Shown: positions 6,708 to 64,000, counted from the stretch's first letter. The stretch is DNA of 64,000 nt from Candidatus Multivorans sp. (GCA_965206765.1 OZ242222.1:1191165-1255164); one strand, 5' to 3'. Made by a program: numbers and translations. The notes: generated by a model from the sequence alone, not told the origin.

Positions 6708-6747
6708 CGAACTCTCTTCTCGCCTCCTCTTGTAGGTCCGCGGCGAA

Positions 6748-9529: not shown

Positions 9530-9544
9530 CGCCCGAAAGGGCCC

Positions 9545-9763
9545 TCACCTCTTCCTGAGCCGTCTGAGCGACCACGCGATGGCGATCCCGACGGCGCCCG
9601 CCGCGACAGGCAACACCCAGGCTGTCCCCACGCGGACGCGGCTCAGATCGGTTCCGCCCACATCACCGAGCGCCCTGCGGACCTGCGCCACGGCCTCTCT
9701 CGTGTCGTCACGCCGGCGAACCAGCAAAGCCGCCCGCTGGCGCGCCTCCGACCGGCGGCTCAC
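9545..9763 (-). CDS. Small hypothetical membrane protein, possibly a YqjK-like partner of the upstream holin-X-like protein
   Basis: 72 aa, Arg-rich N-terminus and one hydrophobic segment (WVLPVAAGAVGIAIAWSL). Its start overlaps the stop of the 9760..10224 gene. Confidence 0.4.
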   Translation of the reverse strand: MSRRSEARQRAALLVRRRDDTREAVAQVRRALGDVGGTDLSRVRVGTAWVLPVAAGAVGIAIAWSLRRLRKR

Positions 9764-10224: not shown

Positions 10225-10299
10225 AAGCGGCTCAGCCTCCAGGCAGCCCCCGGGTCAGCCTCCGAGCAGCCTACCCGTATCGCCCCGGTCAGACGCTGG

Positions 10300-12084: not shown

Positions 12085-12094
12085 AGACTGCCGA

Positions 12095-42192: not shown

Positions 42193-43257
42193 ATGATCGC
42201 ATCGGCATCCGCCGCAGAACAACAGCTTCGCCGCTACTTGGCGGCGCCCCGGTACTCACCTCTCTATGTCGCAGGGGACGCCGTAGGTGTCTTGCCCTGC
42301 TTTCCTGCTTCGTCCTTCGACTGCTGCATGACCAGCCCCCCCTATTGGCGGAAGCGGCAGTACTCGGGCGGCGGTATCGGAATGGAGAGCACCTACGAAG
42401 ACTATGTCGACAAACTTCTCGCGGTGTTGGGAGAGGTCCGTCGCGTCCTTAAGCCCACGGGCTCGCTCTGGCTTAACCTGGGAGACTCCTACAAGAACAA
42501 GGGGCTGGCCGGCATTCCATGGCGAGTGGCATTGCGGCTCACGGACGAGCAGAACTGGATCCTCCGCAACAGTGTGGTGTGGAACAAGATCAAGGGCGGG
42601 CCAGACAACACCCGCGACCGTCTCCGAAACGTCCATGAAAACGTGTTTCACTTCGTCAAGGAACCGCGCGGGTACTACTACGACGTCGACTCGATTCGCA
42701 GCACACCGAAGACGACAAAGGTCGTCAATGGCTCCGTAGTCACGGCGACCGGCGTTCGCGGCGTGCGATATCGGAGGCAGATCGAACTCTCCACCGAACT
42801 CAGTGCGTCTGAGAGAAAGTCCGCCTCTCGGGCTCTCGCGGACATGCTCAACGCCGTGCGAGGTGGCACCGTGGCCGACTTCCGCATGATTATTCGTGGC
42901 AACCAGAGGACCACCCACTCGGACTCCGCAAGCGTCTCGGGTCGCGCCAAGGAGCTTCGCGATAAGGGCTTCTACTTCCTGAAGTACCACCCGAACGGCA
43001 GCAAGCCTGCGGACGTCTGGGACATCCTTCCTGAAGACACCCAGAAACGGCGAGCACATTTCGCACCTTACCCAGAGGATCTCTGCAAACTACCGATCCT
43101 CGCGACTTCGCCACCAGACGGCACGGTCCTTGACCCGTTCTGCGGCACAGGAACGACGATGCTAGTCGCACAGCGTCTAGGGAGAAAGTCGGTCGGCATC
43201 GATCTATCGGCCGAGTATCTGGAAATGGCCGAGATGCGAACGGGCTCATTGTTGTGA
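42193..43257 (+). CDS. Site-specific DNA methyltransferase (N4-cytosine/N6-adenine, beta class, PF01555-like)
   Basis: Motif IV TSPPYW precedes motif I DPFCGTGTT. That order is characteristic of beta-class amino-MTases, and an S-P-P-Y tetrapeptide favours N4-cytosine specificity. Confidence 0.85.
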   Translation: MIASASAAEQQLRRYLAAPRYSPLYVAGDAVGVLPCFPASSFDCCMTSPPYWRKRQYSGGGIGMESTYEDYVDKLLAVLGEVRRVLKPTGSLWLNLGDSYKNKGLAGIPWRVALRLTDEQNWILRNSVVWNKIKGGPDNTRDRLRNVHENVFHFVKEPRGYYYDVDSIRSTPKTTKVVNGSVVTATGVRGVRYRRQIELSTELSASERKSASRALADMLNAVRGGTVADFRMIIRGNQRTTHSDSASVSGRAKELRDKGFYFLKYHPNGSKPADVWDILPEDTQKRRAHFAPYPEDLCKLPILATSPPDGTVLDPFCGTGTTMLVAQRLGRKSVGIDLSAEYLEMAEMRTGSLL

Positions 43258-44102
43258 GCCAGGTACTCGAGCTCTTCGGGCACGGTGCGGACGAGGCAAC
43301 CGATTGGTCTCGGGTGGTTGGGGAGCAGCTCTGCCCCTACCTAGGCTCGGCATGCATCAAGACCCGGAAGAGTCAACCCGAAGTGGCCATTGGAACCTGT
43401 TGCGTCAGCTACGGCCGCGAGGAGCGGACTCCGGTGATCTGTCCGAACCGGCTCCTGAGAGGCGGAAAGGTAATCATCGACTGCATGCGCTACTTGCGGT
43501 CCTACGGACCGGGGGACGACCTGCACGTCGTTCCAGAAGTCGGAGTGCCGGGCGGAAGTGCCGACTACTTCTTGGTGTCTGTGAGCGGGGGCTCAGTCGG
43601 GGACTTTGTCGGGATCGAGTTGCAAGCACTTGACACGACGGGAACGGTCTGGCCGGCTCGTCAGCGGTTCCTAGGGCGAGTCGGACTACGCCAACGCGCC
43701 GAAGCAGAAGCAAGCAGTCGCAGATACGGCATGAACTGGAAGATGACCGCGAAGACGACTCTTGTTCAGCTACACCACAAGGTCCGAACTTTCGAGGCCC
43801 TGGGCCGGCAACTCGTACTTGTCTTGCAGGACGAGCTTCTTGGCTACTTGCAGAGGGAGTTCACCTTCGGGCACGTAGGCCATGCTTCCGACAACGACCC
43901 GATGCAGTTCCACGCCTACAACGTGCAACGGGGCCAAGCAGGCAGCGGGTTACATCTCGCAGAACGGCTGAGCACCGACACCAAGGGAGTCCGCCGCTGC
44001 TTGGATCTTCAGACTGAGGCGCGAGTTGACACCGACCATCTGGTCGCGCAGCTGCGCAGAAAGCTAGGTCCCAGCACCCTCTTCCGCCCAAGAGGAACGT
44101 AG
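43254..44102 (+). CDS. Candidate cognate type II restriction endonuclease (Cys-rich N-terminal metal-binding region)
   Basis: GTG start at 43254 overlaps the MTase TGA, forming a GTGA that implies translational coupling. It has 5 Cys in the first 65 aa (CPYL...C...CC...C) and a possible D...E-x-Q/K catalytic core (DFVGIELQ). Confidence 0.5.
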   Translation: MSQVLELFGHGADEATDWSRVVGEQLCPYLGSACIKTRKSQPEVAIGTCCVSYGREERTPVICPNRLLRGGKVIIDCMRYLRSYGPGDDLHVVPEVGVPGGSADYFLVSVSGGSVGDFVGIELQALDTTGTVWPARQRFLGRVGLRQRAEAEASSRRYGMNWKMTAKTTLVQLHHKVRTFEALGRQLVLVLQDELLGYLQREFTFGHVGHASDNDPMQFHAYNVQRGQAGSGLHLAERLSTDTKGVRRCLDLQTEARVDTDHLVAQLRRKLGPSTLFRPRGT

Positions 44103-49032: not shown

Positions 49033-50237
49033 TGCCCGGCCCCGGACAACGAGGCGCGGGAGTCGTCGAGAAACGCCTGGAGCTCACTCCGCACCAACGC
49101 CGGATCGAGATCCGCGACGATCTCGCCACGACCCGGTTCGGCCGGCAGGATCCAGACCAGACCGCTCTCGCGCGCCTTCTTGTCGCGGCCCATCGCGTTG
49201 ACGAGCCGGTCCACGTCCAGCCGCACGCCACACTGCTGCTCCACCGTGCCGAGCCTCGGTGGCCCGAGCCGGTCGATCATGCGCCCCAGGCGCGACGCGA
49301 ACTCCGGGTCCAGCCCGCGCCGAAGCGCCAGGCGCAGGGCGAACCTCATGCCGTGGCCCACCGCGTCGCCGTGACGCAGGCCCCGGTAGCCGAACTCCGA
49401 TTCGATCGCGTGGCCCAGGGTGTGGCCGAAGTTGAGCAACCGCCGGCGGTCCCCTTCTTCGAGGTCGGCTTCGACGACTCCCAGCTTGGCCTGGATCGAA
49501 GCCGCGACCACCCGCGTCAGCGACTCCGGGTCGCCCGCGAGCAGCCGCTCGAGGGACTCCTCCACCTGCGCCAGCAGATCGAGATCGAGCAGCGCCGCCA
49601 TCTTGACGACCTCGAACAAGCCGGCCCGCAACTCGCCGGCCGGCAGTGTGCGCAGGCAGTCGATGTCGGCGAGCACGAAGCGGGGATGGTGGAAGGCGCC
49701 GACCGTGTTCTTGCCGCCTGGGAGGTCGACCCCGGTCTTGCCGCCGACCGAGGCGTCGACCTGAGCCAGAAGAGTCGTCGGGATCTGGATGTAGTCGATG
49801 CCGCGCAGGAAGCAGCCGGCGGCGAAGCCTCCAAGGTCGCCCACCGCGCCTCCGCCGAGCGTCACCAGGCGACTGTCGCGCTTGCCGCCCCGCTCGAGCA
49901 TCTGCCGCCAGACGGAGGCGGCGCACTCGACCGTCTTCGCCGCCTCGCCGTCGGGCACGTAGATCGTCTCGATCCGGGTCGCGCCCGCGGTCTCCAGCAA
50001 CTGCCGAACCGAGGCGCCGCAGTGGCGGTCCGGCGCCTCGCTCGTGACCATGAAGACGACGCAGCCCCGGCACCAGTCGGCAACGTCGGCGAGAGCACCC
50101 GCGCCGCCCGCAGCCAGCAGACCAGGGCCGACGAGGATCTCGCTCACCCCGCGGGGGTGGGCGAGAGTCAGACGGCGCGGAGCGTCCAAGCCGACCTCCG
50201 CGCTACCCGCCCTGGGCTGAGCCCCGCGGGCGGACAC
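49029..50237 (-). CDS. aroB: 3-dehydroquinate synthase
   Basis: GGGAVGDLGGF and the metal-binding HGH. Confidence 0.8.
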   Translation of the reverse strand: MSARGAQPRAGSAEVGLDAPRRLTLAHPRGVSEILVGPGLLAAGGAGALADVADWCRGCVVFMVTSEAPDRHCGASVRQLLETAGATRIETIYVPDGEAAKTVECAASVWRQMLERGGKRDSRLVTLGGGAVGDLGGFAAGCFLRGIDYIQIPTTLLAQVDASVGGKTGVDLPGGKNTVGAFHHPRFVLADIDCLRTLPAGELRAGLFEVVKMAALLDLDLLAQVEESLERLLAGDPESLTRVVAASIQAKLGVVEADLEEGDRRRLLNFGHTLGHAIESEFGYRGLRHGDAVGHGMRFALRLALRRGLDPEFASRLGRMIDRLGPPRLGTVEQQCGVRLDVDRLVNAMGRDKKARESGLVWILPAEPGRGEIVADLDPALVRSELQAFLDDSRASLSGAGQ

Positions 50238-52023
50238 GCAATCCCAGGTCGAGCAACTGCTCCTGGTCGACGGTCGATGGCGCTTCGGTCATCAGGCAGA
50301 CCGCCGACGCCGTCTTCGGGAAGGCAATCACGTCGCGCAGCGAGTTGGCGCCGGCCATCAGCATGACGATCCGGTCGACTCCGAGGGCCACGCCACCGTG
50401 CGGCGGCGCGCCGTAGCGCAGGGCCTCGAACAGGAAGCCGAAGCGCCGCTCCGCCTCTTCAGAGTCGATTCCAAGCAGGGCGAGCACCCGCTTCTGCAGT
50501 GCCTGGTCGTGGATCCGGATCGAGCCGCCACCGACCTCGTTGCCATTGAGCACCACGTCATAGGCGCGCGATCGCACCGACCCCGGGTCGCTCTCCAAGC
50601 GGTCGAGGTCGGACATGCGCGGCGAGGTGAACGGATGGTGGGTCGCGTTCCAGCGCCCATCGTCGCCGTTCCATTCGACCAGGGGGAAGTCGTGTACCCA
50701 CAGGAACTCGTGCGCGTCCTCGCGCATGTGTCCGAAGCGCCGGCCCACCTCGACCCGCAGCGCGCCGAGCGCCGCCGCCGCGGTCGGCGCGGGCGCCGCG
50801 ACCAGGAGTCCCATGCCGCCCTCCTCGACGCCGAGACGGTCGGCGAGGCTCTCGACCTGCGCCGGCGTCAGGGCGTTCTTGACCAGGAACGAGGGCACGC
50901 CGTTCTCGCGCTTGACCCAGAGCACTCCCTGGGCGCCCTGGCGACGGCCGATGTCGGCGTACTCGTCGACCTGGCGCCGGCTCGATCCGGCGGCGCCCGG
51001 TATGTGGACGCCCCGCACCACGCCGCCCGCGCCGATCGCCGCCCGGAAGGCGCGGAACTCCGTCTCTCGCAGGCGGTCCGTCACGTCCGTGATCTCGAGT
51101 CCGACCCGCAGGTCGGGACGATCCGAGCCGTAGCGCGCCACCGCGTCGTCGTAGGAGAGCCGCGGGTAGGAGGCCGGCGGCTCGATCCCGGCGAGCGGGA
51201 ACACCCGCGAGAACAGCCCTTCGACCAGGCGGAACACGTCCTCCTCCTCGATGAAGGACATCTCGACATCGATCTGTGTGAACTCCGGCTGCCGGTCGGC
51301 GCGCAGATCCTCATCGCGGAAGCAGCGCGCGAACTGCACGTAGCGCTCGAGGCCGCTCACCATCAGGATCTGCTTGAACAACTGCGGTGACTGGGGCAGG
51401 GCGTAGAATCTGCCGTGGTTCAGGCGGCTCGGCACGAGGTAGTCGCGGGCGCCCTCCGGGGTCGAGCGGGTGAGCATCGGCGTTTCGACGTTGATGAAGC
51501 CCTGCTCGCGGAAGTAGTTCAGGCTCTCGATCGTGAAGTCGGAGCGCAGCCTCAGGTTGCGCTGCAACCCCTCCCGGCGCAAATCGAGGAACCGGTACTT
51601 GAGACGGGTTTCCTCGCTCGCGTCCGCCGCACCCTCGATCGCGAACGGCATCGGCTCGGAACGAGCCAGGATCCGCCCCTGCCGGACCTGCACCTCGATT
51701 TCGCCGGTGGCCATCTTCGGGTTGACCTTGTCCGGGTCGCGGCGCACGACCTCGCCCTCGACCTCGACGACGTACTCGAGCCGCGCGGGTTGCAAGGCCT
51801 CGGCCGTCTCAGGCGTGCTCTCGGGGTGGACGACGGCCTGCACGACGCCGCTCCGGTCGCGCACGTCGAGGAAGATCACGCCGCCGTGATCGCGCCGGCG
51901 ATGGACCCACCCCTGGACCTTCGCCTGCTCGCCGACCTGCTCGGTGGTCAGGGTTCCTGCCTTGGTTCTGTTCACGTGCTTGTCCGTTGGTTCTGTCTGC
52001 CTGCTTTCGCCCCGGCTCTCCAT
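50203..52023 (-). CDS. aspS: Aspartate--tRNA ligase
   Basis: OB-fold N-domain (GWVHRRRDHGGVIFLDVRDRSG) and class II motifs (FRDEDLRADRQPEF, GGVALGVDRIVMLM). The start is probably the internal M at 52023. Confidence 0.85.
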   Translation of the reverse strand: MESRGESRQTEPTDKHVNRTKAGTLTTEQVGEQAKVQGWVHRRRDHGGVIFLDVRDRSGVVQAVVHPESTPETAEALQPARLEYVVEVEGEVVRRDPDKVNPKMATGEIEVQVRQGRILARSEPMPFAIEGAADASEETRLKYRFLDLRREGLQRNLRLRSDFTIESLNYFREQGFINVETPMLTRSTPEGARDYLVPSRLNHGRFYALPQSPQLFKQILMVSGLERYVQFARCFRDEDLRADRQPEFTQIDVEMSFIEEEDVFRLVEGLFSRVFPLAGIEPPASYPRLSYDDAVARYGSDRPDLRVGLEITDVTDRLRETEFRAFRAAIGAGGVVRGVHIPGAAGSSRRQVDEYADIGRRQGAQGVLWVKRENGVPSFLVKNALTPAQVESLADRLGVEEGGMGLLVAAPAPTAAAALGALRVEVGRRFGHMREDAHEFLWVHDFPLVEWNGDDGRWNATHHPFTSPRMSDLDRLESDPGSVRSRAYDVVLNGNEVGGGSIRIHDQALQKRVLALLGIDSEEAERRFGFLFEALRYGAPPHGGVALGVDRIVMLMAGANSLRDVIAFPKTASAVCLMTEAPSTVDQEQLLDLGLRVRPRGSAQGG

Positions 52024-52064
52024 CAATCGGCTGCCGGCCCGCGAAGCCCCCGATCCTCGCACAA

Positions 52065-53369
52065 CTAGGGCTGCTCGTCAGGACGTACCTTCGCTGCAAC
52101 CGCAGCCGCGAAACCATCCCGCGGAATCGTCTCCTGGGTGCTGTCGTAGAAATCCCTCAACACGACCTCTCCGTTCTTCTCTTCGTCCTCGCCAAAGAGC
52201 ACGACCCACCGACAGTCGTGGCGGGACGCCTGTTTCAGCCGAGCCTTGAGAGGCCGCAGAGAATCGAATTCACAGATCGCAGGGATACCGGCGGCGCGCA
52301 ACTCCTGCGCCAACACCATGCCGTGCCGACGGTACGAGCCGCCGATCGGAATCACGCACACGGGTCTCCGGCGAAGGTCCTCGGCGTTCAGGCGCGCAAA
52401 GGCTCCGGGGATCTTCAGTACGAGGTCGACCAGCCGATCCTGACCGATCGCGAAACCGATTCCGGGCACACTCGGACCGCCAAGTTCGGCGATCAAACCA
52501 TCGTAGCGACCGCCGCCCAGGATCGCGTTCTGCGCGCCCAAGCCCGCAGATGTGATCTCGAACACAGTCCGGGTGTAGTAGTCGAGGCCGCGCACGAGCT
52601 TGTCCTCTACCCGGTGGGCGACACCGGCCTGGACCAGTTGCTCGCGCACCTCCTGGAAGTGGTCGTGAGCCCGACCGCCCAAGTCATCGGACAACCGCGG
52701 GGCGTTCTCGAGCAACTCTCGCTCCTTGGGCGCCTTCGTGTCCAGGATGCGGAGGGGATTCGTCTCCAGCCGTCGCCGGCTGTCCCCGCCCAGTTCGTCA
52801 CGGTACGGTTCGAGGAACTCCCGCAGGCGCTGGGAGTACCGCTGTCTGCATTCCACATCGCCGACCGAGTTGAGGCCCACCTCCAGGTCCTCGAACCCGA
52901 GTTCCTCCAGGAAGCGCACCAGCATGACGAGAAGCTCGACGTCGCTGTAGGGACCCGGATCGCCGATCAGCTCGGCGCCAATCTGGTGGAACTGACGGTA
53001 GCGGCCTTCCTGGGGGCGCTCGTAGCGAAAGTACGGCCCCATGTAGAAGACCTTGACTGGCTGCGGCCCCGACGCCCAGTTGTTCTGCAGGTAGGCGCGC
53101 GCCACCGGCGCCGTGCCTTCCGGGCGGAGCGTCAGGCTACGCCCCTTCTTGTCGTCGAAGGTGTACATCTGCTTGCCGACGATCTCGCTGCCCTCGCCCA
53201 CGCCGCGCACAAACAGCTCCGTCTCCTCCACGATCGGTGTGCGCACCTCGTCGTAGCCGTAGAGGGAGAACACCTCTCGCGCCTTCTCCTCCACAAACGC
53301 AAAGGCAGGGGCCTTGTTGACCAGGTCGTGCATTCCCTTGACGGTCTGGAATCGTCGCTTCGCAGCCAT
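52065..53369 (-). CDS. hisS: Histidine--tRNA ligase
   Basis: Start MAAKRRFQTVKGMHD, class II motifs and an anticodon-binding C-domain. Confidence 0.85.
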   Translation of the reverse strand: MAAKRRFQTVKGMHDLVNKAPAFAFVEEKAREVFSLYGYDEVRTPIVEETELFVRGVGEGSEIVGKQMYTFDDKKGRSLTLRPEGTAPVARAYLQNNWASGPQPVKVFYMGPYFRYERPQEGRYRQFHQIGAELIGDPGPYSDVELLVMLVRFLEELGFEDLEVGLNSVGDVECRQRYSQRLREFLEPYRDELGGDSRRRLETNPLRILDTKAPKERELLENAPRLSDDLGGRAHDHFQEVREQLVQAGVAHRVEDKLVRGLDYYTRTVFEITSAGLGAQNAILGGGRYDGLIAELGGPSVPGIGFAIGQDRLVDLVLKIPGAFARLNAEDLRRRPVCVIPIGGSYRRHGMVLAQELRAAGIPAICEFDSLRPLKARLKQASRHDCRWVVLFGEDEEKNGEVVLRDFYDSTQETIPRDGFAAAVAAKVRPDEQP

Positions 53370-53437
53370 AGGGGCTGATCGTATCCATCCCCCGCTGCAT
53401 AGGGGCACTGGTAGCGAGCTTCAACCGCGAAACAAGC

Positions 53438-53515: not shown

Positions 53516-54112
53516 TCATCTGTCCGAGAACTTCCGGTCGACCGCGGCCCAGAGTTCGTCCATGTTCAACTCGATCTCCGGCACAGCGGCCGACTGGTAG
53601 CTGGAGCCCTCCGGCGCACGCTCGGCAAAGCCCTCGCCGTCGTGAACCAGGAACGCGATCCGGCGCTGCCGCGGATCGACAATCCAGTACTCACCTACAC
53701 CGGCCGCGGCATAGAGGTCGAGCTTGTGGACCCGGTCGCGTGACGCCGTCGAAGGCGACAGCACCTCGACCAGGAGATCCGGCGCGCCTTCCATCCAGTC
53801 CTGAACAATCTCGCTCCGCTCCGGGGAGACGTAGATCACGTCGGGCTGGACCACCGAATGATCCGCCAGGTGGACATCCATCGGCGCCACGATCGCAGCG
53901 CCGCCGGTGCGATCCGCCGCGTCGAGGAAGAGCCGGAACAGATAGCCGACGATGAACTGGTGGAGGAAGATTGGGCTGGGACTCAGGTAGAACCTCCCGC
54001 GGATCAACTCGCAGCGGGGTTCATCGGGGAGGGCCATGTAGTCGCGGCGGCGGTACGGCCCCAAACTGTGCGGCAGCGTCCGCGGCGGCCGGTCGAGCAG
54101 CGTCACGGTCAT
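53516..54112 (-). CDS. Uma2 family (DUF820) PD-(D/E)XK endonuclease
   Basis: 198 aa with motifs PDV.YV ... EVLSPST ... YW.VD typical of Uma2/DUF820. Confidence 0.7.
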   Translation of the reverse strand: MTVTLLDRPPRTLPHSLGPYRRRDYMALPDEPRCELIRGRFYLSPSPIFLHQFIVGYLFRLFLDAADRTGGAAIVAPMDVHLADHSVVQPDVIYVSPERSEIVQDWMEGAPDLLVEVLSPSTASRDRVHKLDLYAAAGVGEYWIVDPRQRRIAFLVHDGEGFAERAPEGSSYQSAAVPEIELNMDELWAAVDRKFSDR

Positions 54113-54201
54113 GCGGAGGAGTATACGGAGCCAACGGTCCCCGGCGTCTAGTCAGGCGCACAGGTAGCCAGGTGGTAGCGTCCCGCCGAGGACGGATACC
54201 G

Positions 54202-55332
54202 GTGCAGATCGAACTCTCGGAACGCCAGCGCGCGACCGTCGCTGCCGCGGCGACGATCGCCGCGGCAGCCGTCATCCTGGCCGCCGTGGCGTTGCTGTTC
54301 TGGGCCATCGGCACCTTCTTCGCCGCCTTTTCGAGCGTCTTCCTGCCGCTGGCGGTCGCGGCCGTGCTGGCGTTCGTGCTCCGGCCGTACTACGAACTGC
54401 TCAACGAACGGCTACGGTTCCCGAAGATCCTGGCGGTGGCCGCGGTGCTGCTGTCCCTGCTCATCCCCGTCGTCGGCTTCGCCTGGTTCTTCGGCGCCAT
54501 GGCGGCGTCACAGATCGACGAACTCTTCGAAGCGCTACCGGCCGCGTGGGACCGCATCGTCGACTGGACGGCCGCGATCTCGCCTGTGGTGACCGAGTTC
54601 CTGGAAACGAATTCGGTCGCAATCCAGGTGCGGGAGGCGTTCGAGGGCGGAGAGTCGAACCTGCTCTCGAGCCTCGGCAGCGTCGGCGATACGGCAGTGG
54701 AGGTACTCCAGAGCATCGCCGCCGCCCTCGCCTCGCTCTTCGCCTGGGCGGTGCTGCCGGTGTATCTCTGCTTCTTCCTCATGGTCGAACCCGACCGGTT
54801 CCGCAAGCTCGACCACCTGTTTCCGTTCCTCAAGGCCAAGACGCGGGCCGACGTGATCTACCTGATCCAGGAGTTCATCGACATCCTGGTCGCCTTCTTC
54901 CGCGGCCAGCTCGTCATCGCCTTCCTCCAGGGCGCGCTGTTCGCCATCGGCTTCTCCATCGCCGGGCTGCGCTACGGCCTGGTCCTGGGCCTGATGCTGG
55001 GCTTCCTCAACATCATTCCGTACCTGGGCAGCATCGTCGGTCTGGCCGTGGCGCTGCCGATCGCCTACTGGCAGGAAGGCGGCGGCCTCCAGCTCGTGAT
55101 CTGGGTGGTGGTCGTCTTCACGCTCGTCCAGCTCATCGAGGCCTACGTGCTGACCCCGCGGATCATGGGCGACCGCACGGGGCTGCACCCGATGGCGATC
55201 ATCGTCGCCGTCTTCTTCTGGGGCTCGGCCCTCAACGGCATCGCCGGCATGATCCTGGCGATTCCGTTGACCGCCTTCCTGGTCGTGTTCTGGCGGTTGG
55301 CAAGGGAGCGCTACATCGGCGAGGTCTTGTAG
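54202..55332 (+). CDS. AI-2E family transporter (UPF0118 / PerM-TqsA-like permease)
   Basis: About 8 TM helices. The C-terminal ...GMILAIPLTAFLVVFWRL is typical of the family. GTG start near 54202. Confidence 0.7.
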   Translation: MQIELSERQRATVAAAATIAAAAVILAAVALLFWAIGTFFAAFSSVFLPLAVAAVLAFVLRPYYELLNERLRFPKILAVAAVLLSLLIPVVGFAWFFGAMAASQIDELFEALPAAWDRIVDWTAAISPVVTEFLETNSVAIQVREAFEGGESNLLSSLGSVGDTAVEVLQSIAAALASLFAWAVLPVYLCFFLMVEPDRFRKLDHLFPFLKAKTRADVIYLIQEFIDILVAFFRGQLVIAFLQGALFAIGFSIAGLRYGLVLGLMLGFLNIIPYLGSIVGLAVALPIAYWQEGGGLQLVIWVVVVFTLVQLIEAYVLTPRIMGDRTGLHPMAIIVAVFFWGSALNGIAGMILAIPLTAFLVVFWRLARERYIGEVL

Positions 55333-55469
55333 GCCCCGGCCCGCAAGGACGGAGCCAAGGCCCGACCACCGCCGAGATCTCCCAGCAACCGCCAAGGACC
55401 CCCACGGCTTGGCGCCGTCGCCAGCTTGCTGCAGTGTAACGAGACGTTACATGGTAACCTGCCGAAACC

Positions 55470-56198
55470 ATGTTGCCGGGACACCACAAGGGCGCGGCTC
55501 TACTCTCGATCAAGCTCACCGCGCGGCTGGCAGGAGTAACGGTGCCGGCAGTGAGGGCAGCCATCCGCCGCGAACGGCTCAAGGCGGTGACGCTGGCCGA
55601 GGCAGAGAGCACCGCTGTGCGATTCGTCGATCTACGCGAAGCCGCTCGTTACTACGGGTGGCCTCCGGCGCTGGTCAACCGCCTGGAGGACGAGTGGAGA
55701 ACAGGCGTTCCGGACGGAGAAGCCGTATACAAACTCGACCACGATGCCGACGCGCCCGACAGCGAGACGCACAGCCTTGACGCCGTCGCCGCTCAACCCA
55801 CTACCAACGAGCCGCACAACACCCACACAGAGACGGTACCGACAAGGGCTACCGACTCGGCCACTCAGGCCGAAGATGTCACCCGCGCGCCGGATCTGGC
55901 GCCCGAGCCGACATCGGCCGGCCATGCGTGGGAGCGCGCGGTGACAGAGTCGGCCAGCGCCAGCCAGAAACCGGGCGATCCTCCCCCAGGCTTCAGGCTC
56001 GTTCTGCCTCGAAAGACCGCGAAGCTCCAAGCGAGGGAGGTGTACGACCTGGTAGTCGACGGCGAGGTCGTCGGGACGATCGCGGACAAGGGCTTTGCGA
56101 GCTACGTCAGGGAGAAGTGCTTCCGGGGCGAGGTCTTCGTGAACGGCAAGGGGGGCGTCAAGTGGCGCCCGCGCGTCCCCCTCAAGAGAAACGTGTAG
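55470..56198 (+). CDS. Hypothetical protein with an N-terminal helix-turn-helix-like segment and a Thr/Pro-rich linker
   Basis: LSIKLTARLAGVTVPAVRAAIRRERLKAV resembles an HTH. The C-terminal ~70-aa basic domain has no family I can name. Confidence 0.45.
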   Translation: MLPGHHKGAALLSIKLTARLAGVTVPAVRAAIRRERLKAVTLAEAESTAVRFVDLREAARYYGWPPALVNRLEDEWRTGVPDGEAVYKLDHDADAPDSETHSLDAVAAQPTTNEPHNTHTETVPTRATDSATQAEDVTRAPDLAPEPTSAGHAWERAVTESASASQKPGDPPPGFRLVLPRKTAKLQAREVYDLVVDGEVVGTIADKGFASYVREKCFRGEVFVNGKGGVKWRPRVPLKRNV

Positions 56199-56237
56199 CG
56201 CCATTTTCTCCTCCTGGAAAGGAGAGATAGAGCCTCT

Positions 56238-57608
56238 ATGACCCCGGACGTGGACCGCTTCCGACGCGCCTTCGACGCACAGCTTGCCGATGGGCTGCAA
56301 GACGCCGGCCCGCCATTCACGAGGCGCCGCCTCTTCGGCCAGATACAGATGCCGGGCAAAGTCACGACCGTGATCGGCATGCGACGCGCCGGCAAGACCA
56401 CGTTCCTCCAGCAGTTGAGAGCCGAGAGCATTGCGCGGGGCACCGCACCCTGGCAACTACCGTTCCTCAGGCTCGAAGAGGAGCGGTTCGCGGGACTGGA
56501 CGCCCTGTCCCTCGGAGCCTTGATCGACGAGTACCCAAGCCGCTATCTGACCGGCGCGGAGGCCGCACCCGAAGCTTGGTTCCTCGACGAGATTCAGGTC
56601 GTGCCCGGCTGGGAGCGGCTCGTGAGGCGCCTGCTCGACTCCCGGCACGCCGACTTGTACATCTCAGGATCCTCAGCCGGTCTTCTCTCCCGAGAAATTG
56701 CCACGGAGTTGCGCGGTCGCGGATGGAAAGTCCTGATCCACCCCTTCAGCTTTGAGGAAGCTCTTCGGCATGGCGGCATGACACCACCGCCCGACCCGCC
56801 GGCCGTCGCGGAGGCGGAAGCGACCCGACTGGAGTCGACCCTCCGCGAGTGGCTGCGCACCGGTGGCTTCCCGGAAGCTCAGGGACTGCCGACGGCGCCC
56901 CGACTCCAACTCCTCCGGGACTATGTGGACGTGGCCATCCTGAGGGATGTCGTCGATCGCTATGCGGTCCGCAACGTCACGGGCCTGCGCTGGCTTGCTC
57001 GCCACCTGCTGGCCAACGCCGGGTCTCCCTTCAGCGTCGAGAAATTCCACGCCAGGTTGAAGTCCCAGGCGATCGCCATAGCAAGGGACACCGTGCACGA
57101 GTACCTCTCCTATCTGGAGGACTGTTTCCTGGTGAGGACGGTATGGATCGAGGCGGATTCCGAGCGCCAACGCATGGTGAACCCACGCAAGGCGTATCCG
57201 GTCGATTCCGGGTTGATTCCCGCGTTCGACCGTACCGGGCGAGCCAACCTGGGGCACGCGCTGGAGACGGCGGTCCTCGTCGAGCTGGAGCGGCGGGGGT
57301 GCGAGGTGACCTATGTGCGTACGCCGGAGGGCTACGAAGTGGACTTCCTGGCTCGGTCGCCCAGCGGCGAGAAGGACCTGATCCAGGTATGCGCCGACGC
57401 CTCCGACGACGACGCCGCGACCCGGGAACTCCGAGCGCTGGCCGCCGCCCAAGACCGCTTTCCCAGTGCTCGCAAACGGCTGTTGACCCTGACGCGGTCG
57501 GGCCTTCCGTCCGAAGTACCCTCTGGGGTTGAAGCCCAACCGGCGCATGAGTGGCTACTCGGCGACTCGCCAAGCTTTGGGGAACCGCCCCCACGGGGTT
57601 GGCTGTAG
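56238..57608 (+). CDS. AAA-superfamily ATPase with a C-terminal DUF4143 (predicted PD-(D/E)xK-like) domain, COG1373-type
   Basis: Walker A GMRRAGKTT and Walker B WFLDEIQ, plus the C-terminal EVDFL...GEKDLIQV region. Confidence 0.7.
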   Translation: MTPDVDRFRRAFDAQLADGLQDAGPPFTRRRLFGQIQMPGKVTTVIGMRRAGKTTFLQQLRAESIARGTAPWQLPFLRLEEERFAGLDALSLGALIDEYPSRYLTGAEAAPEAWFLDEIQVVPGWERLVRRLLDSRHADLYISGSSAGLLSREIATELRGRGWKVLIHPFSFEEALRHGGMTPPPDPPAVAEAEATRLESTLREWLRTGGFPEAQGLPTAPRLQLLRDYVDVAILRDVVDRYAVRNVTGLRWLARHLLANAGSPFSVEKFHARLKSQAIAIARDTVHEYLSYLEDCFLVRTVWIEADSERQRMVNPRKAYPVDSGLIPAFDRTGRANLGHALETAVLVELERRGCEVTYVRTPEGYEVDFLARSPSGEKDLIQVCADASDDDAATRELRALAAAQDRFPSARKRLLTLTRSGLPSEVPSGVEAQPAHEWLLGDSPSFGEPPPRGWL

Positions 57609-57628: not shown

Positions 57629-60600
57629 CTACAGCAACACCAGGCGCCCCGACGCCGGCGCGCCCGTCAGTTGCTCCAGCGCATAGCAGTACCAGCGCAC
57701 CTGGCGACGGTACGCATCGCCCCGCGGAACGGCCTCGGCGCCGGCCTCGCCACCACCAACCGGCGCGTCGAGATCGGCCAGATCCGTCTTCCAGTCGACG
57801 ACGATCCACCGGTTGTCCTCATCCAGGTAGGCGAGATCGATCGTTCCCTCGACGATTCCGCGGCCGTCCTTGCCGTCTTCGCTGCCTACTTCCGAGACGG
57901 GTAGAGGCAAGACGAACGGGGTCTCGCGCAGCACCCGCGGCGAGTCCCGAGCGGCGTGCGCGGCCGGACTCGCGAGGGCGGCCGACACCGCCGCAACCGC
58001 GGCTTCGATCTCCGCCGTATCGGCCGCCAGCAGCGAACCGTGCAACCCGGCCAACTCCCGGATCCGGTCCGGCTCGCCGGCAAGAGGGGTATCCCGCAGA
58101 ACGGTGTGCACCAGACTGCCGAACCGGACGCCGCCCGGGCGGTCTCGGCGACGCTCTCGTTCCTCGACCACGACCTCGGCCGCCGGCCCGGGCGGCTCGA
58201 AGTCGAGTCCGGTGACCGCTTCAGGCCGGACCGAGGGCCGACCGCCTCGCTCCAGCAGGGCCTGGTTGCGGCTTCGCCACCGTTCGAATCGCTCGCGACT
58301 CGCATCGGCGGCGGCGCCACCACCCTCGACCAGGAGATCCTCGCCCAGCAGGCCGTAGGTGGCCGGGGGCTCCTGGTTCAGAAGGTCCGCATCCCACCAG
58401 ACCACGTCGTAGTCCGGGGCGTCGTCGGCCGGGCCGTCCGTTCCGGCCGCCTTCGGGAACCGGTACCGGCCGGGTCTCACGGACTGCTCCGGCCTGCGGT
58501 CGTAGTTCGAGGGACGCACCGCCACCGACCTGTCGCCGAACTCGGGGCAGCCTTCGGCGGGCGCCGAGCCGCGCCAGGCATCCGATCCGGGGTACACGGC
58601 GTCGTTGAGGCATTCGATCCAGCCCGAACGCTTCACGTCGCCGACCGCGGGCACCACGAGCAGGTCGCGAGCTCGCGTGGCGGCCACGTACGCGACCCGG
58701 ACGCCCTCCGCTTCCTCCCTCTTGTCCTCGACCTCCGAGGCGTCGAGCAGTTCCTGCGGCGAGAGTCCGAGCAGCTTCATCGCGCAAAGCTCGTCCTCGC
58801 TGCGTACGGTCCGTTCGGCGCCGCGCGACAGCTTCGCGGTCATGTCCGCAAGGATGACGACCGGGAACTCCAGTCCCTTCGCGGTATGAACCGTCATCAC
58901 GCGGACTCCCTCGGCGTCCTCCTCGACCACCGGGGCCTGGGCGCCACCGATCCGTTCCGCCTCCTCGTCCAACTGCTCGACGAACCCACGGAACGAACGA
59001 CCGCCCGCTACCTCATAGCGGCGGGCCAGATCGCACACGCGCTGGGCGTTGCCCAGCACCTGGTTGCCGGCCGGCCGCAGCGCCATCGCAGCCTGGGCGC
59101 GCGGCTTGGCCAGGATTTCCTGGACCGTCTGCACGATTGGCCGGTAGTTCCGCCGACGGTGGAGCGTGCCGAGGAAGTCGAGGACATCGACCAGGGAGGC
59201 GAACTCCTCCGGCGGCTCGACGCACTCCCGCGCCCTGCGCGGCGAGTAGAGGGGATGCCAGTTCCCGTAGCGCGTCTTGAAGCGCAGCAACAGGTCGTCG
59301 TCGAAGGCGAACAGGGATCCACGGAGCGTCGCGTAGACGGAGAGGCGATCGTCGGGCCACTCCACGGCCGTCAGCGCCGACCGCAAGGCCTCGACCTCCT
59401 CCCGGTCGTGGAAGGAGCGAGCGCCGATCAGCAGGTGCGGAATGCCCAGCGCCTCCAGGCCGCGGACGTAGTCCCGGGCGGTGTCCTGGTTCCAGCTCAG
59501 GAAGCGCCGGAAGAGCAGGCAGATGTGCCGCGGCTGCACCGGCGTTCGCATGAAGCGACCGGGATTGTCCGGATCGGGCACCTCGACTTTCCAGCCGCTG
59601 TCCTGGATCAACCAGCGCACGAATTCGACGGTCGCGGACGGCTGGCACGCCTCGATGTCTCGCTGGGTCACGTTGCGGTAACCGTAGGGCTTCGGCGGCG
59701 GCAGCGCGACGACCTGGGGTTGGCCGGGGATCGCCTGCCGGTGCTCGCCCAGGGGGATGTAGTCGGCGCTGCCGGCGGTCCGGTCGCCGGTCATGCACGG
59801 CGCGAAGGCCGCATTGACCAGCCGCTGGATCGGCGCCACGGACCGGAAGCTGGTCGTGAGCTGCAGCGCCTGGACCCCGCGCTCAGCGAGCCTCTTCTTC
59901 ACGATCTGGTACAGCACGACATCGGCCCGGCGGAAACGGTAGATCGACTGCTTCGGATCGCCGACCAGGAACAGTTTGCCGGAAGCCGGCGTCACCTGCG
60001 TCCAGTCGTCCTCGTCCGGATCGTCGGCCGACAGCAGCAGCAGGATCTCGGCCTGCAGCGGATCCGTGTCCTGAAACTCGTCGATGAACAGGTGCCGGTA
60101 GCGCGCCTGCAGGTGGCGCCGCACCTCCCGGTCGCGGCGAAGCAGGTCGCGGGCCTTCATCAGCAGGTCGTGGAAATCGAGCTTCCCCAGCAGTCGCTTG
60201 GCGTGCTCGTAACGTTCGACGGCGCCCGATAGCTCGTCCTTCAGCAATGCGGCCAAGTCGGCATTCGCGGTCTGCTCGAACCGGCGCAGACGCTCCGAGA
60301 GCCGGCGCCAGAGCTCGAAGACCTGTTCCCGGGCGACGCCCTCAGCAAAGCCGCCCCGACCCTTGCGCGGACTCCTGAACCCGCTCAGGTCGCGCAGCAG
60401 CCTGACGAGCCTTGCTTCCAACTGGTCCTGGAACGCCTCCCGGCCGTCTGCCCGATCCCCTCGATGCGGACCGGGACCCGCCACACTCAGTTGCCGGGTG
60501 CGAACGATCCAGTTCGAGAGCTCGACCACCGGCGCCAGGTTTCGACGCAGCACGTCGCCCTGCCGGCCACAAAGAACCAGTTCTCCGAGCCGCTCGACCC

Positions 60601-61273
60601 CGTCGCAGAGCTCCTCCAACTCCGCCTCCCGATCGAACTCGGGGCGCCGCCAGGGCGTCGCAAAGTCGCGCCAGTCGACTAATCTCCACGCCGCTTCGCG
60701 CAACCGATCGAGTGCCGACTGCTGCGGCGACCATGGCCCGACCGTCAGGCGGGCCAGTTCGCGCCTCAGGCCCGGCGGCATCGTCTCGAGCTGCTCTTCG
60801 ATCCAGCGTCCGAAGGTGCGGGCGAACAGGCGCGGCGCTTCGTCTTCCGCCAGCTCTCCAAACCCCGGATCGACCCCGGCCTCGACCGGACGCTCGCGCA
60901 GGATGTCGGCGCAGAGAGAGTGGATCGTGCCGATGGCCGCCTGTTCGAGGCGGGAGATGGCGGTTTCGAGGTTCGCCGTCCTCTTGCCGGCCTCTCCGCC
61001 GTCGCGCAACTCGATCAGACGGGCGTCGAGCGCCTGGCGCAGGCGGAGCTTGAGTTCGCCGGCGGCCTTGCGGGTGAAGGTCACCGCCGCCAAGGCGTCG
61101 ACCGAGCCGCGGCCCTCCTCCAGGATCGCCACCAGGCGCTCCACCAACACCGTCGTCTTGCCGGTACCGGCAGCCGCCTCGACCAACTGGCTCTCGTCCA
61201 GCGCCTCGCGGATGCGGCGGCGGGCGGCTTCGTCGGCCGGCGGCGGGGCCTGGGCGCGCGGACTGGCAGCCAT
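57629..61273 (-). CDS. addA: ATP-dependent helicase/nuclease subunit A (UvrD-family SF1 helicase plus C-terminal RecB-type nuclease)
   Basis: Walker A AAAGTGKTT and UvrD motifs (LFIDEFQDTDPLQ, VGDPKQSIYRFRRAD, MTVHTAKGLEFPVV). The C-terminal nuclease motif is DLAYLDED..VVDWKTD. ATG at 61273 in an ATGA overlap with the addB stop. The 1396-aa annotated ORF is a read-through. Confidence 0.85.
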   Translation of the reverse strand: MAASPRAQAPPPADEAARRRIREALDESQLVEAAAGTGKTTVLVERLVAILEEGRGSVDALAAVTFTRKAAGELKLRLRQALDARLIELRDGGEAGKRTANLETAISRLEQAAIGTIHSLCADILRERPVEAGVDPGFGELAEDEAPRLFARTFGRWIEEQLETMPPGLRRELARLTVGPWSPQQSALDRLREAAWRLVDWRDFATPWRRPEFDREAELEELCDGVERLGELVLCGRQGDVLRRNLAPVVELSNWIVRTRQLSVAGPGPHRGDRADGREAFQDQLEARLVRLLRDLSGFRSPRKGRGGFAEGVAREQVFELWRRLSERLRRFEQTANADLAALLKDELSGAVERYEHAKRLLGKLDFHDLLMKARDLLRRDREVRRHLQARYRHLFIDEFQDTDPLQAEILLLLSADDPDEDDWTQVTPASGKLFLVGDPKQSIYRFRRADVVLYQIVKKRLAERGVQALQLTTSFRSVAPIQRLVNAAFAPCMTGDRTAGSADYIPLGEHRQAIPGQPQVVALPPPKPYGYRNVTQRDIEACQPSATVEFVRWLIQDSGWKVEVPDPDNPGRFMRTPVQPRHICLLFRRFLSWNQDTARDYVRGLEALGIPHLLIGARSFHDREEVEALRSALTAVEWPDDRLSVYATLRGSLFAFDDDLLLRFKTRYGNWHPLYSPRRARECVEPPEEFASLVDVLDFLGTLHRRRNYRPIVQTVQEILAKPRAQAAMALRPAGNQVLGNAQRVCDLARRYEVAGGRSFRGFVEQLDEEAERIGGAQAPVVEEDAEGVRVMTVHTAKGLEFPVVILADMTAKLSRGAERTVRSEDELCAMKLLGLSPQELLDASEVEDKREEAEGVRVAYVAATRARDLLVVPAVGDVKRSGWIECLNDAVYPGSDAWRGSAPAEGCPEFGDRSVAVRPSNYDRRPEQSVRPGRYRFPKAAGTDGPADDAPDYDVVWWDADLLNQEPPATYGLLGEDLLVEGGGAAADASRERFERWRSRNQALLERGGRPSVRPEAVTGLDFEPPGPAAEVVVEERERRRDRPGGVRFGSLVHTVLRDTPLAGEPDRIRELAGLHGSLLAADTAEIEAAVAAVSAALASPAAHAARDSPRVLRETPFVLPLPVSEVGSEDGKDGRGIVEGTIDLAYLDEDNRWIVVDWKTDLADLDAPVGGGEAGAEAVPRGDAYRRQVRWYCYALEQLTGAPASGRLVLL

Positions 61274-64000
61274 CACCGCTCGCTCCGAATCGCCTGCAGG
61301 TCGTGCAGCCGCGTCCCGTCCTTGCGCTGGACCCGCAACTCTTCGTAGGGGCCGCACACCCGCCGGTAGTCGCAGTACCGGCATTCGTCCCTCGCCGGCG
61401 CCGCGGGCAGGAAGCCGTCCTCCAGCGCTCCGTCGACCGTCTTCAGCAGCCGACGGGCGGCGCCGCGGCTCCGCTCGTCGAGCGGCACGGCCACCGTGCT
61501 GTAGCCGCCCCGCTGGGTGCAGTAGAAGAGCCGCCCCGAAACCACCTCCCGCTCGAGCACGTCCTCCGCGGCCAGACTGTAGAGGACCGGCTGCAGCACC
61601 TTGCCGCCGCCGATCACCAGGCCGGCGCCGGCATGAACGGCGCGACCGGTCTTGTGGTCGGTCACTCGCAGCCGACCGTCCGCGTCCTCCTCCACGAGGT
61701 CGATCGAGCCACGCAGCCGCGCCCCGTCGAGCACCTCCGCCGGCGCCCGCTTGCTGCGCGGATCCCGGTCCGCGGACCGCCTGAGACCGAAGGAGAGTTC
61801 GGCGTGGACCGGCTTCCACTGGCCGCCCTCGTCCGCCACCTGCCGCAACCAGCCGCGCAGGTCGGCCCGCAAGCCCTCGAACTCCGCCCTCCAGACGCGC
61901 TCGATCGGCGGCGCGAGTTCCTCCCGGTAGTCACGCTCGCTCTGAACGAGCACCTCATCCAGCAACTCGAAGACCGTCTCCAGGCGGCTCAGCACCACCG
62001 GCAACAGGTCCGCCGCCTCCAGGGCGCCAAACAGGCGGAACTGGATCTCGTGGAAGATGCTGCCCCGGGTCATCGGGTTCATCTGCTCGAGCTGGACGAG
62101 TTCCTTGCGCGGCCTGAGGTACAGCACCGCCTGCAGGAAGAACCGGTAGGGGCAGGCGGCGAAGTTCTGGAGGGCGGTCGGCGAGTAGGAGCGCACGCCG
62201 ATCCGCTGGGCAGCGAGCGACTCCCTGGCCTCCGGGCTCGCGTCCACGAGACCGTCGACCGGGAACCAGGGTCGCCGCCAGCGCCGGCCACGCGCCTGCA
62301 GGGCGCGTTTCAGGTGCGGGTTCGACTCCAGGAGAAAGCGCGCCCGCCCTCTGCGCTCCGCGACCGGGGCGCCGGGACCCAGGAGCGGTTGCAGCAGGGC
62401 GAGATCGAACTCGGCCTCGTCGACCGCGTCCTCGGCTTCGGCGGGCGCCGGCCAGCCGACCACCGCGGCGCCGGCGGCCGCGGCGCGCCGGCCGAGCGCG
62501 TCGAGGTCCGGCAGGCTGCCTTCGGCGCCCCGCAGCACGTCGAGCGCGTAAAGCGACGGCACCCGTGCCCGCCCCTGCACCAGGTCGACCCGCGGATACG
62601 AAACGACCAGCCAGCGACTCGCGGCGCCGATGGCGAGGCGAAGCAGCAGTTGCTCCCGCCGGGTGCGGCCCAGATCCTCGGTGAGCCGGTAGCCCGCTTG
62701 CCGCAGGGTCCGGCGACCTTCGTCGAGCAGCAGCGGATCCTCCTTCGCCCGCCGTGGGAACACCCCCTCGGCCAGGCCCGGCACGAACACGACGTCGAAG
62801 CTCCGTCCCGCCGCCTCCTCGACGCCACCGACGAAGACCCGGCCGAACCGCCGTTTCGGCGGCCGGCTGCGGCTGAATCCCAAGCGCTCGCCCAGGATCC
62901 GCTCCACCTCGGGCAAGCCGACCTCGTCGACCTGCGCCAGGGGTCGGAGCTCGGCAAGCACCTCGAGCACGGTCTCCGGCCGCCGCAACGCCATCGTCGC
63001 CAACTCCTGCAGACGCTCGAGCCACCATCCCCAGTCCGCGCGCTCGGGCAGGGCGTCGAGGAACTCGATCAGGGGCAGCGCGAACGTCTGGAGCGTTTCC
63101 AGGCGCCCGATCTGCCGCTCCAGATAGCCCCTGTGGCCTTCGTCCTCGTCCCCGGCCTCGCGCAGTTGCAGCCGGAACTCCGCGCCGAGACCCGCCAGCC
63201 GCTTCTTCCAGCGTTCGGCCCCGCCGACCACGGCGGCATCGACCAGCAGGCGCTCCCACTGGGAAGGGACGCGGAGCGCGCCGGCCGGCGCCGCCTCTTC
63301 CTGGGTTTCGCGAGCCTCCGCTGCGCTGTCGGTCACAGAGTGCGGGCCAGACGCCCGCCGAGACAACTCCGGCGACTTGAGGACGAGTTGTTCGCCCGCC
63401 GGCTCGACCCAGGGCGCCTCGCGCTGCGGGGGTCCGCCGCCCTTGGCCGGTTCGGGAGTCTGGCCGAGCGACAGGTACTCGGCGAAGCGGCTCGCCGAGA
63501 GTCTCTCCCCCACGCACGCCAGCAGGGCCAGGAAGGCGCGGCCGGCCGGATTCGGGCGCAACGCGCCCCGGGTGACGTAGGCGGGGATGCCGGCGCGGCT
63601 GAGCGCGTCCTCCACCAGGGGCAGGTAGGCGGCCGGCTGGCGAAGCAGGATCGCCATGCGATCGAAGTTGAGGCCCCCGGCCGCGGCACGGTGGATGCGC
63701 CGGGCGATCTCGACGCACTCCTGGCCCTCGCCGGCCGCCGAGAACAGGTCGACCGAAGAGCCGGCCGGCACATCTGCGGCACTGCGTGGAAGCGCGGCCA
63801 TCCTGCCCGCACCTGGGGGCGCGGGCGTCTCGCCCGCATCCGTCGTTCCGCCAAGCGGCGAGGACGCGTCCACACCGGTCTCAAAGACGAAGCGCTGGAC
63901 CCGATCCAGCCGCCGACCGCCCGAAGTCCCGGCGACGACCGCTTCCTCCCGGTCGAGATCGATCACCGCCCCTTCGCCGAGCAGCGAGCCCAGCCACTCC
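61273..64000 (-). CDS. addB: Helicase/nuclease subunit B-like protein (AddB/RecB-family nuclease domain with Fe-S cysteines); the N-terminus lies beyond the window end
   Basis: The first Cys (NFAACPYRF) and the nuclease motif (DLVEEDADGRLRVTDHKTG) are followed by a C-terminal CRYCDYRRVCGPYE triad. This is the AddB Fe-S cluster arrangement. Confidence 0.75.
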   Translation of the reverse strand, partial: EWLGSLLGEGAVIDLDREEAVVAGTSGGRRLDRVQRFVFETGVDASSPLGGTTDAGETPAPPGAGRMAALPRSAADVPAGSSVDLFSAAGEGQECVEIARRIHRAAAGGLNFDRMAILLRQPAAYLPLVEDALSRAGIPAYVTRGALRPNPAGRAFLALLACVGERLSASRFAEYLSLGQTPEPAKGGGPPQREAPWVEPAGEQLVLKSPELSRRASGPHSVTDSAAEARETQEEAAPAGALRVPSQWERLLVDAAVVGGAERWKKRLAGLGAEFRLQLREAGDEDEGHRGYLERQIGRLETLQTFALPLIEFLDALPERADWGWWLERLQELATMALRRPETVLEVLAELRPLAQVDEVGLPEVERILGERLGFSRSRPPKRRFGRVFVGGVEEAAGRSFDVVFVPGLAEGVFPRRAKEDPLLLDEGRRTLRQAGYRLTEDLGRTRREQLLLRLAIGAASRWLVVSYPRVDLVQGRARVPSLYALDVLRGAEGSLPDLDALGRRAAAAGAAVVGWPAPAEAEDAVDEAEFDLALLQPLLGPGAPVAERRGRARFLLESNPHLKRALQARGRRWRRPWFPVDGLVDASPEARESLAAQRIGVRSYSPTALQNFAACPYRFFLQAVLYLRPRKELVQLEQMNPMTRGSIFHEIQFRLFGALEAADLLPVVLSRLETVFELLDEVLVQSERDYREELAPPIERVWRAEFEGLRADLRGWLRQVADEGGQWKPVHAELSFGLRRSADRDPRSKRAPAEVLDGARLRGSIDLVEEDADGRLRVTDHKTGRAVHAGAGLVIGGGKVLQPVLYSLAAEDVLEREVVSGRLFYCTQRGGYSTVAVPLDERSRGAARRLLKTVDGALEDGFLPAAPARDECRYCDYRRVCGPYEELRVQRKDGTRLHDLQAIRSER

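Follow-up and report, generated by a model that had tools for sequence, protein, structure and literature searches.

Which of the genes lying between hisS and addAB in Candidatus Multivorans sp. belong together, and what might they do? The question arises from an earlier note on a 64,000-nucleotide stretch of this genome (GCA_965206765.1 OZ242222.1:1191165-1255164; the whole stretch is called the window here). At positions 53516-57608 it described a cluster of three genes encoding a Uma2 endonuclease, a 242-residue protein with a helix-turn-helix (HTH)-like N-terminus, here called X242, and an AAA/DUF4143 ATPase. The window was mapped from a listing of open reading frames (ORFs), their translations and Pfam, and the three ORFs lie exactly at the positions given for them. 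The X242 and ATPase genes are a genuine two-gene unit, and Uma2 is not part of it. Tentatively, at somewhat less than an even chance, the locus can be read as two unrelated accessory elements flanking a resident transporter gene: on one side a Uma2 cassette, on the other an operon of operator, X242 and ATPase in which X242 would be an autoregulated, antitoxin-like regulator. The elements of the putative operon are:

55435-55451, no strand: perfect palindrome TGTAACG-AGA-CGTTACA, candidate operator, 19 bp 5' of the X242 start codon
55470-56198, plus strand: X242, 242 aa, an orphan for which no family matched
56238-57608, plus strand: AAA_14/DUF4143 ATPase, 456 aa, PDC-S01 type (AAA_14 94.4 bits, DUF4143 61 bits)

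Occurrence of the X242/ATPase cassette

Each X242 homologue examined is followed, 4-45 bp downstream, by an ATPase of one clade (445-473 aa) or its remnant. In the window the gap is 39 bp and the motif AGGAGAG precedes the ATPase ATG. No ATPase of this clade was found without X242. The ATPase family as a whole is huge, with 6103 matches below 1e-30, and X242 is linked only to its top branch. The X242-linked ATPases share 73-100% identity with the window protein and at least 70% among themselves, and in a neighbor-joining tree they form one clade, with the non-Multivorans copies basal and the Multivorans-type copies nested inside. The ATPases examined at 65-68% identity (P0071 in L023-L026, P0054 in L028) have unrelated genes upstream and no X242.

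The pair occupies four neighborhoods. At the Multivorans site it is present in L001, L003, L005-L017, L020, L021 and L029. In L002, L018 and L031 it lies between a peptidase/outer membrane protein region and LVIVD-repeat genes, in L019 and L022 it adjoins an SSF transporter and a HEC-01A-type ABC ATPase, and L027 provides a further, separate neighborhood. The proposed stand-alone module of HTH protein and ATPase is thus borne out as a genomic unit: the two co-occur in every context examined, X242 always stands ahead of the clade ATPase, and a palindrome is common to the cassettes.

A scan of species-representative genomes gave 12 X242 loci, with phylum labels taken from the records of the metagenome-assembled genomes (MAGs). 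Ten are in MAGs labelled Ca. Multivorans, Thermoanaerobaculia, Acidobacteria or Vicinamibacteraceae, and because synteny is common to them these ten represent one lineage of Acidobacteriota. The other two carry Gemmatimonadota labels, Longimicrobiales in one case and Ca. Palauibacter in the other. Identity of the window ATPase is 79% with the Longimicrobiales copy and 80-82% with several Multivorans-type copies; since identity across phyla equals several identities within the family, transfer between phyla is indicated. In the simplest history, X242 would have been recruited once, to one ATPase branch; the pair would then have crossed between phyla and been inherited vertically at one Multivoraceae site.

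At that site the arrangement is stable. tblastn with seven window proteins recovered the gene order aspS, hisS, (Uma2), AI-2E transporter, X242, ATPase, AddA in all Multivorans-type loci, about a dozen of them distinct. The slot between the AI-2E gene and X242 holds a DUF1801 gene in L005 and L021 and a NucS_C-like nuclease in L016 (356 aa), L029 and L030, with PADLOC PDC-S11 matches of 4e-35 in L016 and 4e-31 in L029. The L016 slot also contains an additional 374-aa protein with a weak winged HTH match; both extra genes and an ISL3 transposase inserted in the ATPase gene fall in L016 region 7599-12127. Variation of the block among strains, raised as a check in the earlier note, is seen for Uma2, for this slot and for an ISL3 insertion, but not for the X242/ATPase core. 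The earlier note had itself taken universal syntenic conservation within the lineage, together with a match of the HTH protein to a housekeeping regulator, as evidence against a defence island. Such synteny is largely what is seen, and by that measure it counts against the idea; X242, on the other hand, matches no housekeeping regulator.

The adjacency to AddAB, which had seemed notable, is missing from the non-Multivorans contexts (L002/L018/L031, L019/L022 and L027) and is therefore incidental. A functional link between the cassette and AddAB was rejected on the same ground.

In L022 the ABC ATPase beside the cassette (6406-8064, minus strand) matches PADLOC HEC-01A at 3e-107 and is accompanied by a 130-aa ORF belonging to no family; this context is closely related to the Palauibacter locus L019. 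HEC-01 is among the candidates reported as protective in a cold-seep study (bioRxiv 10.1101/2024.09.26.614923).

The candidate operator

The palindrome TGTAACG-AGA-CGTTACA (site TGTAACGAGACGTTACA) is unique in the 64-kb window, where 0.01 matches are expected by chance. The pattern TGTWACGNNNCGYTACA occurs once each in 12 of 28 loci, always 18-65 bp upstream of an X242 homologue. These loci represent three genomic contexts, so the palindrome travels with the cassette. Other X242-bearing loci have visibly related, degenerate palindromes, which escape the exact pattern. L019 has lost the palindrome through a short deletion, and its ATPase is degraded too. We take the palindrome to be a candidate operator of the X242/ATPase module. 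A sigma-70 promoter scan found no sites.

The X242 protein

X242 matches no family in Pfam, NCBIfam or PHROG, and its lone PADLOC match, to the small HTH protein mad1, is weak and sub-threshold (8e-5). Homologues make up only 30 clusters among 5.8 billion. A sequence/profile search of the PDB with the X242 family found nothing, nor did a Foldseek search of the C-domain against viral structures. A profile hidden Markov model (HMM) of the C-domain, run against 1.84 billion representatives, returned family members and repeat-rich giant proteins only; the giant proteins were rejected as relatives, having been judged spurious on a reading of two of the four. As far as its sequence tells, X242 is without relatives outside these approximately 30 clusters and matches neither a housekeeping regulator nor any known family.

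In the family alignment X242 has two conserved parts, an N-domain (residues 8-90) and a C-domain (146-238), joined by a linker (~91-145) that is hypervariable and rich in indels. The ratio of nonsynonymous to synonymous substitution rates (dN/dS), for pairs with dS > 0.5, is 0.05-0.14 in the N-domain, 0.18-0.31 in the C-domain and 0.34-0.97 in the linker. This pattern identifies X242 as a real protein with two constrained domains.

AlphaFold2, given the family alignment, models the N-domain as beta-alpha-alpha-beta-beta-alpha-alpha with a predicted local distance difference test (pLDDT) score of ~80, followed by the linker (residues 91-148), which is acidic and predicted to be disordered. The top Foldseek match of the N-domain in the PDB is the mycobacteriophage Pukovnik Xis (4j2n; E 0.025, probability 1.0), with a template modeling score (TM) on the target of 0.74 and 31% identity over 55 columns. 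The next neighbors are BldC (TM 0.76-0.81), MtaN/MerR-type and Mu-type winged helices, all with marginal E-values. The model, with its beta-alpha-alpha-beta-beta fold and these marginal E-values, points to an Xis/MerR-like winged HTH. The excisionase and MerR-like structures (Xis 4j2n, BldC 6ama, MtaN 1r8d) superpose on X242 residues 10-54 with a TM of 0.7-0.8 on the target. Unlike the excisionase, MerR-like and HTH_17 proteins, however, the window X242 reaches no Pfam HTH model and has no recombinase nearby, and it continues into a linker of ~55-60 residues and an orphan C-domain of ~95 residues. HTH_17 does not match the window X242 and matches four of 22 family members below threshold (best E 0.019); AbiEi_4 matches three of the 22, also below threshold.

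The C-terminal part is basic (pI 9.8-10.3). The C-domain (149-238) is predicted to be a basic alpha+beta domain of weakly oligonucleotide/oligosaccharide-binding (OB)-like topology. Its conserved residues include W154, R156, GFRL, DLVVDGEVVGT, GEVFV and WRPRVP. An HTH-like N-terminus joined to a basic C-domain of no assigned family, as the protein had been described, is thus what the predictions give. The X242 versions in L019 and L022 (P0027, 324 aa) carry an extra C-terminal extension of ~85 residues that is missing from all Multivorans-type copies.

The ATPase

Both parts of the ATPase exceed their Pfam cut-offs, AAA_14 with 94.4 bits over residues 41-176 (cut-off 27) and DUF4143 with 61 bits over residues 236-386 (cut-off 28.1), so that its initial assignment holds. 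Both Walker motifs, A (GMRRAGKTT) and B (FLDEIQ), are intact, and none of the aligned homologues departs from them. A sequence/profile search of the PDB found no solved structure related to the ATPase by sequence.

The protein also matches PADLOC PDC-S01 (PDLC04787) at 3.6e-93 over residues 39-442. Guilt-by-embedding yielded the PDCs as "145 untested phage defence candidates" (bioRxiv 10.1101/2024.01.29.577857), and PDC-S01 reportedly ranks fourth in frequency among defences across prokaryotes (PMC12988326). The window protein resembles PDC-S01 (COG1373) in its AAA_14 plus DUF4143 architecture, in the near full-length HMM match, in the intact Walker motifs and in a patchy, seemingly horizontal spread. 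It differs in two respects. PDC-S01 is defined as a single gene, whereas this clade is strictly linked to an upstream X242 and a conserved palindrome; and the canonical E-x-K of PDC-S01 reads Q-V-C in the X242-linked clade and in its 65%-identity relatives.

The second difference bears on catalysis. Among PD-(D/E)XK families, DUF4143 is listed as one of unknown function (PMC3424549). In the window protein E343 and D369 are conserved, and Q-V-C stands where a canonical paralogue (L002:17428-18594) has E-V-K, in an alignment of only four sequences in which the catalytic K may have migrated. Q-V-C is found in all 16 clade and near-clade sequences inspected. Because Q-V-C replaces E-V-K, nuclease activity by canonical PD-(D/E)XK (D ... 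E-x-K) chemistry is doubtful, and a role as canonical nuclease was set aside on that ground. The DUF4143 domain, described earlier as nuclease-like, lacks the canonical (D/E)xK.

The 3' tail of the ATPase gene (57438-57608, residues 401-456) differs from L001 with a dS of 0.79 and a dN of 0.28; in the rest of the gene dS is 0.13-0.20, a contrast that hints at a recombination breakpoint close to where the ATPase and AddA genes converge.

Asymmetric decay of the pair

Both genes are under purifying selection, the ATPase with an overall dN/dS of ~0.12. X242 evolves faster than its partner (63-66% versus 80-82% identity), and it is the ATPase that is lost. In L011 an in-frame internal deletion removes ATPase residues ~166-345; in L016 an ISL3 transposase is inserted after about residue 32 and the gene is also truncated; in L019 it has suffered deletions and frameshifts. 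All three retain an unbroken X242 frame, of 243 aa in L016 and of 324 aa in L019. The ATPase is dispensable, having been lost independently three times. The asymmetry of decay, the upstream position, operator and two-domain build of X242, and its faster evolution are as expected of a pair made up of a regulator or antidote and an effector.

The Uma2 gene and the flanking genes

Upstream of the cassette and beyond its ATPase end, the following genes are mapped:

50203-52062, minus strand: aspS (Pfam)
52065-53408, minus strand: hisS (Pfam)
53516-54112, minus strand: Uma2, 198 aa (PF05685, 105.7 bits)
54202-55332, plus strand: AI-2E transporter, 376 aa, GTG start (PF01594, 200 bits, 6e-59)
from 57629, minus strand: AddA-like UvrD helicase with a PD-(D/E)XK nuclease (Pfam and NCBIfam)

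AddB comes after AddA in relatives. The flanks of the proposed three-gene cluster were correctly named, but the AI-2E gene had been overlooked. Its start was set by comparison with the 376-377 aa gene calls of relatives, and by tblastn every Multivorans-type locus has it in synteny, at 82-94% identity. This conserved resident gene separates Uma2 from the X242/ATPase module.

The Uma2 product is an ordinary member of the Uma2/DUF820 family (PF05685; PDC-S03). Its full-length Pfam match (105.7 bits against a cut-off of 27, 2.4e-30) spans residues 24-183 and profile positions 3-170 of 172, confirming the original identification. It also matches PADLOC PDC-S03 (PDLC04832, 1.3e-33) and phrog_16228 (6e-35). 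The family-typical PD...EVLS...D..K string can be read by eye in the translation as QPDVIYV...APDLLVEVLSPSTASRDRVHKLDLY and would hold the putative PD-(D/E)XK-type active-site residues. The sole notable property of the gene is its presence or absence among close relatives: it occurs in seven distinct genomes and is missing from at least six, and the sister pairs L001/L020 and L003/L014 differ. Alignment shows the polymorphism to be a clean ~790-bp indel between the hisS start and the region upstream of AI-2E. Uma2 is an independent single-gene cassette, gained or lost among close relatives. Because the conserved AI-2E gene separates it from the pair and it varies independently, it lies outside the X242/ATPase module, and its membership was rejected.

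A proposed regulator and effector, and the alternatives

If X242 is an antitoxin-like regulator or adaptor of a PDC-S01-type effector, it would bind the upstream palindrome through its Xis/MerR-like winged helix and repress the operon, while the basic C-domain, held on a flexible linker, would contact the ATPase and restrain or direct it. The ATPase would be the output, built of an AAA+ motor, a winged helix and a degenerate nuclease-fold domain, and would more probably bind or remodel nucleic acid than cut it canonically. Type II/IV toxin-antitoxin and AbiE-like modules have the same gene order, short spacing and a palindrome before the operon. Their upstream protein combines a DNA-binding with a second domain, as predicted here for X242; it is the faster-evolving partner, and the effector can be lost while the upstream gene stays. 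Unlike those modules, the cassette shows no membership by sequence (the AbiEi_4 matches are the three sub-threshold ones noted above), and its putative effector belongs to the AAA+ ATPases, not to the nucleotidyltransferases or the classic toxins.

Several points weigh against a regulator-effector pair. We infer that the ATPase is toxic, that X242 binds the palindrome and that the two proteins make contact. X242 outlasting its partner could equally point to a function of its own. Confidence in the C-domain model is no more than moderate (pLDDT 71), and no significant structural neighbor of it was found. The ATPase tree is a neighbor-joining tree without support values, and the phylum labels come from MAG records only. 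One PDC-S01 representative, assayed in E. coli B against T4, T5 and T7, was outside the four protective systems (bioRxiv 10.1101/2024.09.26.614923). In addition, the cassette has long been stably syntenic across the family (dS ~1) between housekeeping flanks, unlike a fast-turnover defence locus.

This last observation bears directly on strict anti-phage defence, in which X242 would sense infection or target foreign DNA and activate the PDC-S01 ATPase, Uma2 would be a second system, and the whole would be a mini defence island beside AddAB. The PADLOC matches of the ATPase (PDC-S01, 3.6e-93) and Uma2 (PDC-S03, 1.3e-33) agree with such an island, as do the nuclease-type candidates that gather in relatives (PDC-S11-like in L016 and L029, HEC-01A beside the cassette in L022), the putative type II restriction-modification pair ~10 kb away in the window, the presence of the cassette in two phyla and the rank of PDC-S01 among the commonest candidate defences in surveys (PMC12988326). 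However, PDC-S01, S03 and S11 are candidates only and the one PDC-S01 test gave no protection, so the kinship with defence islands that had been suggested extends to an association with unvalidated candidates and no further. Housekeeping genes lie immediately to either side, the cassette holds a fixed, syntenic place throughout the family, AddAB is not its neighbor in the other contexts, and the nuclease motif is non-canonical. Strict defence is possible, if on the unlikely side. The same synteny beside AddAB, kept in all Multivorans-type loci examined, would suit instead a regulatory pair, domesticated or ordinary, that serves the cell, for example in DNA transactions near AddAB. X242 would then be a transcription factor specific to the lineage, and its partner a chromosomal DNA-binding AAA+ protein. 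The purifying selection seen in both fits this, and so do the X242 frames that stay intact where the ATPase is lost. Three independent losses nevertheless mark the ATPase as dispensable, no family member matches a housekeeping regulator, and in another phylum the cassette sits in unrelated contexts, where ATPase identity matches that found inside the lineage. We consider a cellular role decidedly unlikely.

The resemblance of the N-domain to a phage excisionase, its best structural match, raises the further idea of a mobile-element remnant, X242 being an excisionase-like recombination directionality factor and the ATPase a helper encoded by the element. Occurrence in two phyla and the insertion sequence (IS) elements near the cassette in L016 and L031 are compatible with it. 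But the cassette has neither an integrase nor a transposase beside it in the window and in most contexts, there are no tRNAs and no flanking direct or inverted repeats in the window, X242 is four times the length of an excisionase and has a second conserved domain, and the position is stable across the family. A remnant of this kind is very improbable.

With X242 still read as an antitoxin-like regulator of the ATPase, the novelty is a two-gene version of a known candidate family, PDC-S01. It is an advance at the level of annotation and does not conflict with current understanding. A bolder claim, that X242 and the Q-V-C ATPase are an unrecognized two-component abortive-infection or defence system in which an orphan DNA-binding protein gates a non-nucleolytic AAA+ effector, seems unlikely on present evidence. 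If true, it would give a first mechanistic handle on PDC-S01, one of the commonest uncharacterized candidate defence families in prokaryotes. A clade with an obligate partner, a recognizable operator and natural ATPase knock-outs makes a compact, tractable entry into PDC-S01 biology. The case is also one of a small cassette common to two phyla and then fixed at one chromosomal site in one of them.

Base composition and other features of the window

The GC content of 53516-57608 is 66.2%, not the 63-64% estimated earlier; the window mean is 68.4% and the flanks are at ~71%. The interval lies at the 19th percentile of 4.1-kb windows and is no outlier, and the dip extends over hisS (64.4%). A recent island marked by low GC was rejected for these reasons. 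GC at third codon positions (GC3) is 0.79 in X242, 0.79 in the ATPase and 0.81 in hisS, against 0.93 in the AI-2E gene, 0.90 in aspS and 0.86 in AddA; the lower values are a weak compositional signal. An Rfam scan returned sub-threshold noise only, no tRNAs were found in the window, and no meaningful direct or inverted repeats flank the cassette there.

The identities of hisS are discordant with those of its neighbors. It is 73% identical to its counterpart in the closest genome, L001, where aspS and AddA are at 95%, and 88-91% identical to those of the more distant L006-L009, L012 and L013, where AddA is at ~70-72%. Together with its low GC (64.4%, GC3 0.81) this suggests that hisS was replaced allelically through recombination.

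The maximal AddA ORF (57629-61819, minus strand) encodes 1396 aa from a GTG, ~180 codons more than in relatives, whose calls run to 1195-1234 aa; translation probably begins inside this ORF, near MAASPRAQ.

At 42193-44102 (plus strand) the window holds a gene for an N6/N4 DNA methyltransferase (PF01555 1.8e-48, PADLOC MTase_II 1.3e-66) and, downstream of it with an overlapping start, a 282-aa ORF with a weak match to a type II restriction enzyme model (1.7e-8). The two are probably a type II restriction-modification pair, ~10 kb from the interval 53516-57608, and they sit in the lowest-GC 4-kb stretch of the window (61.8%).

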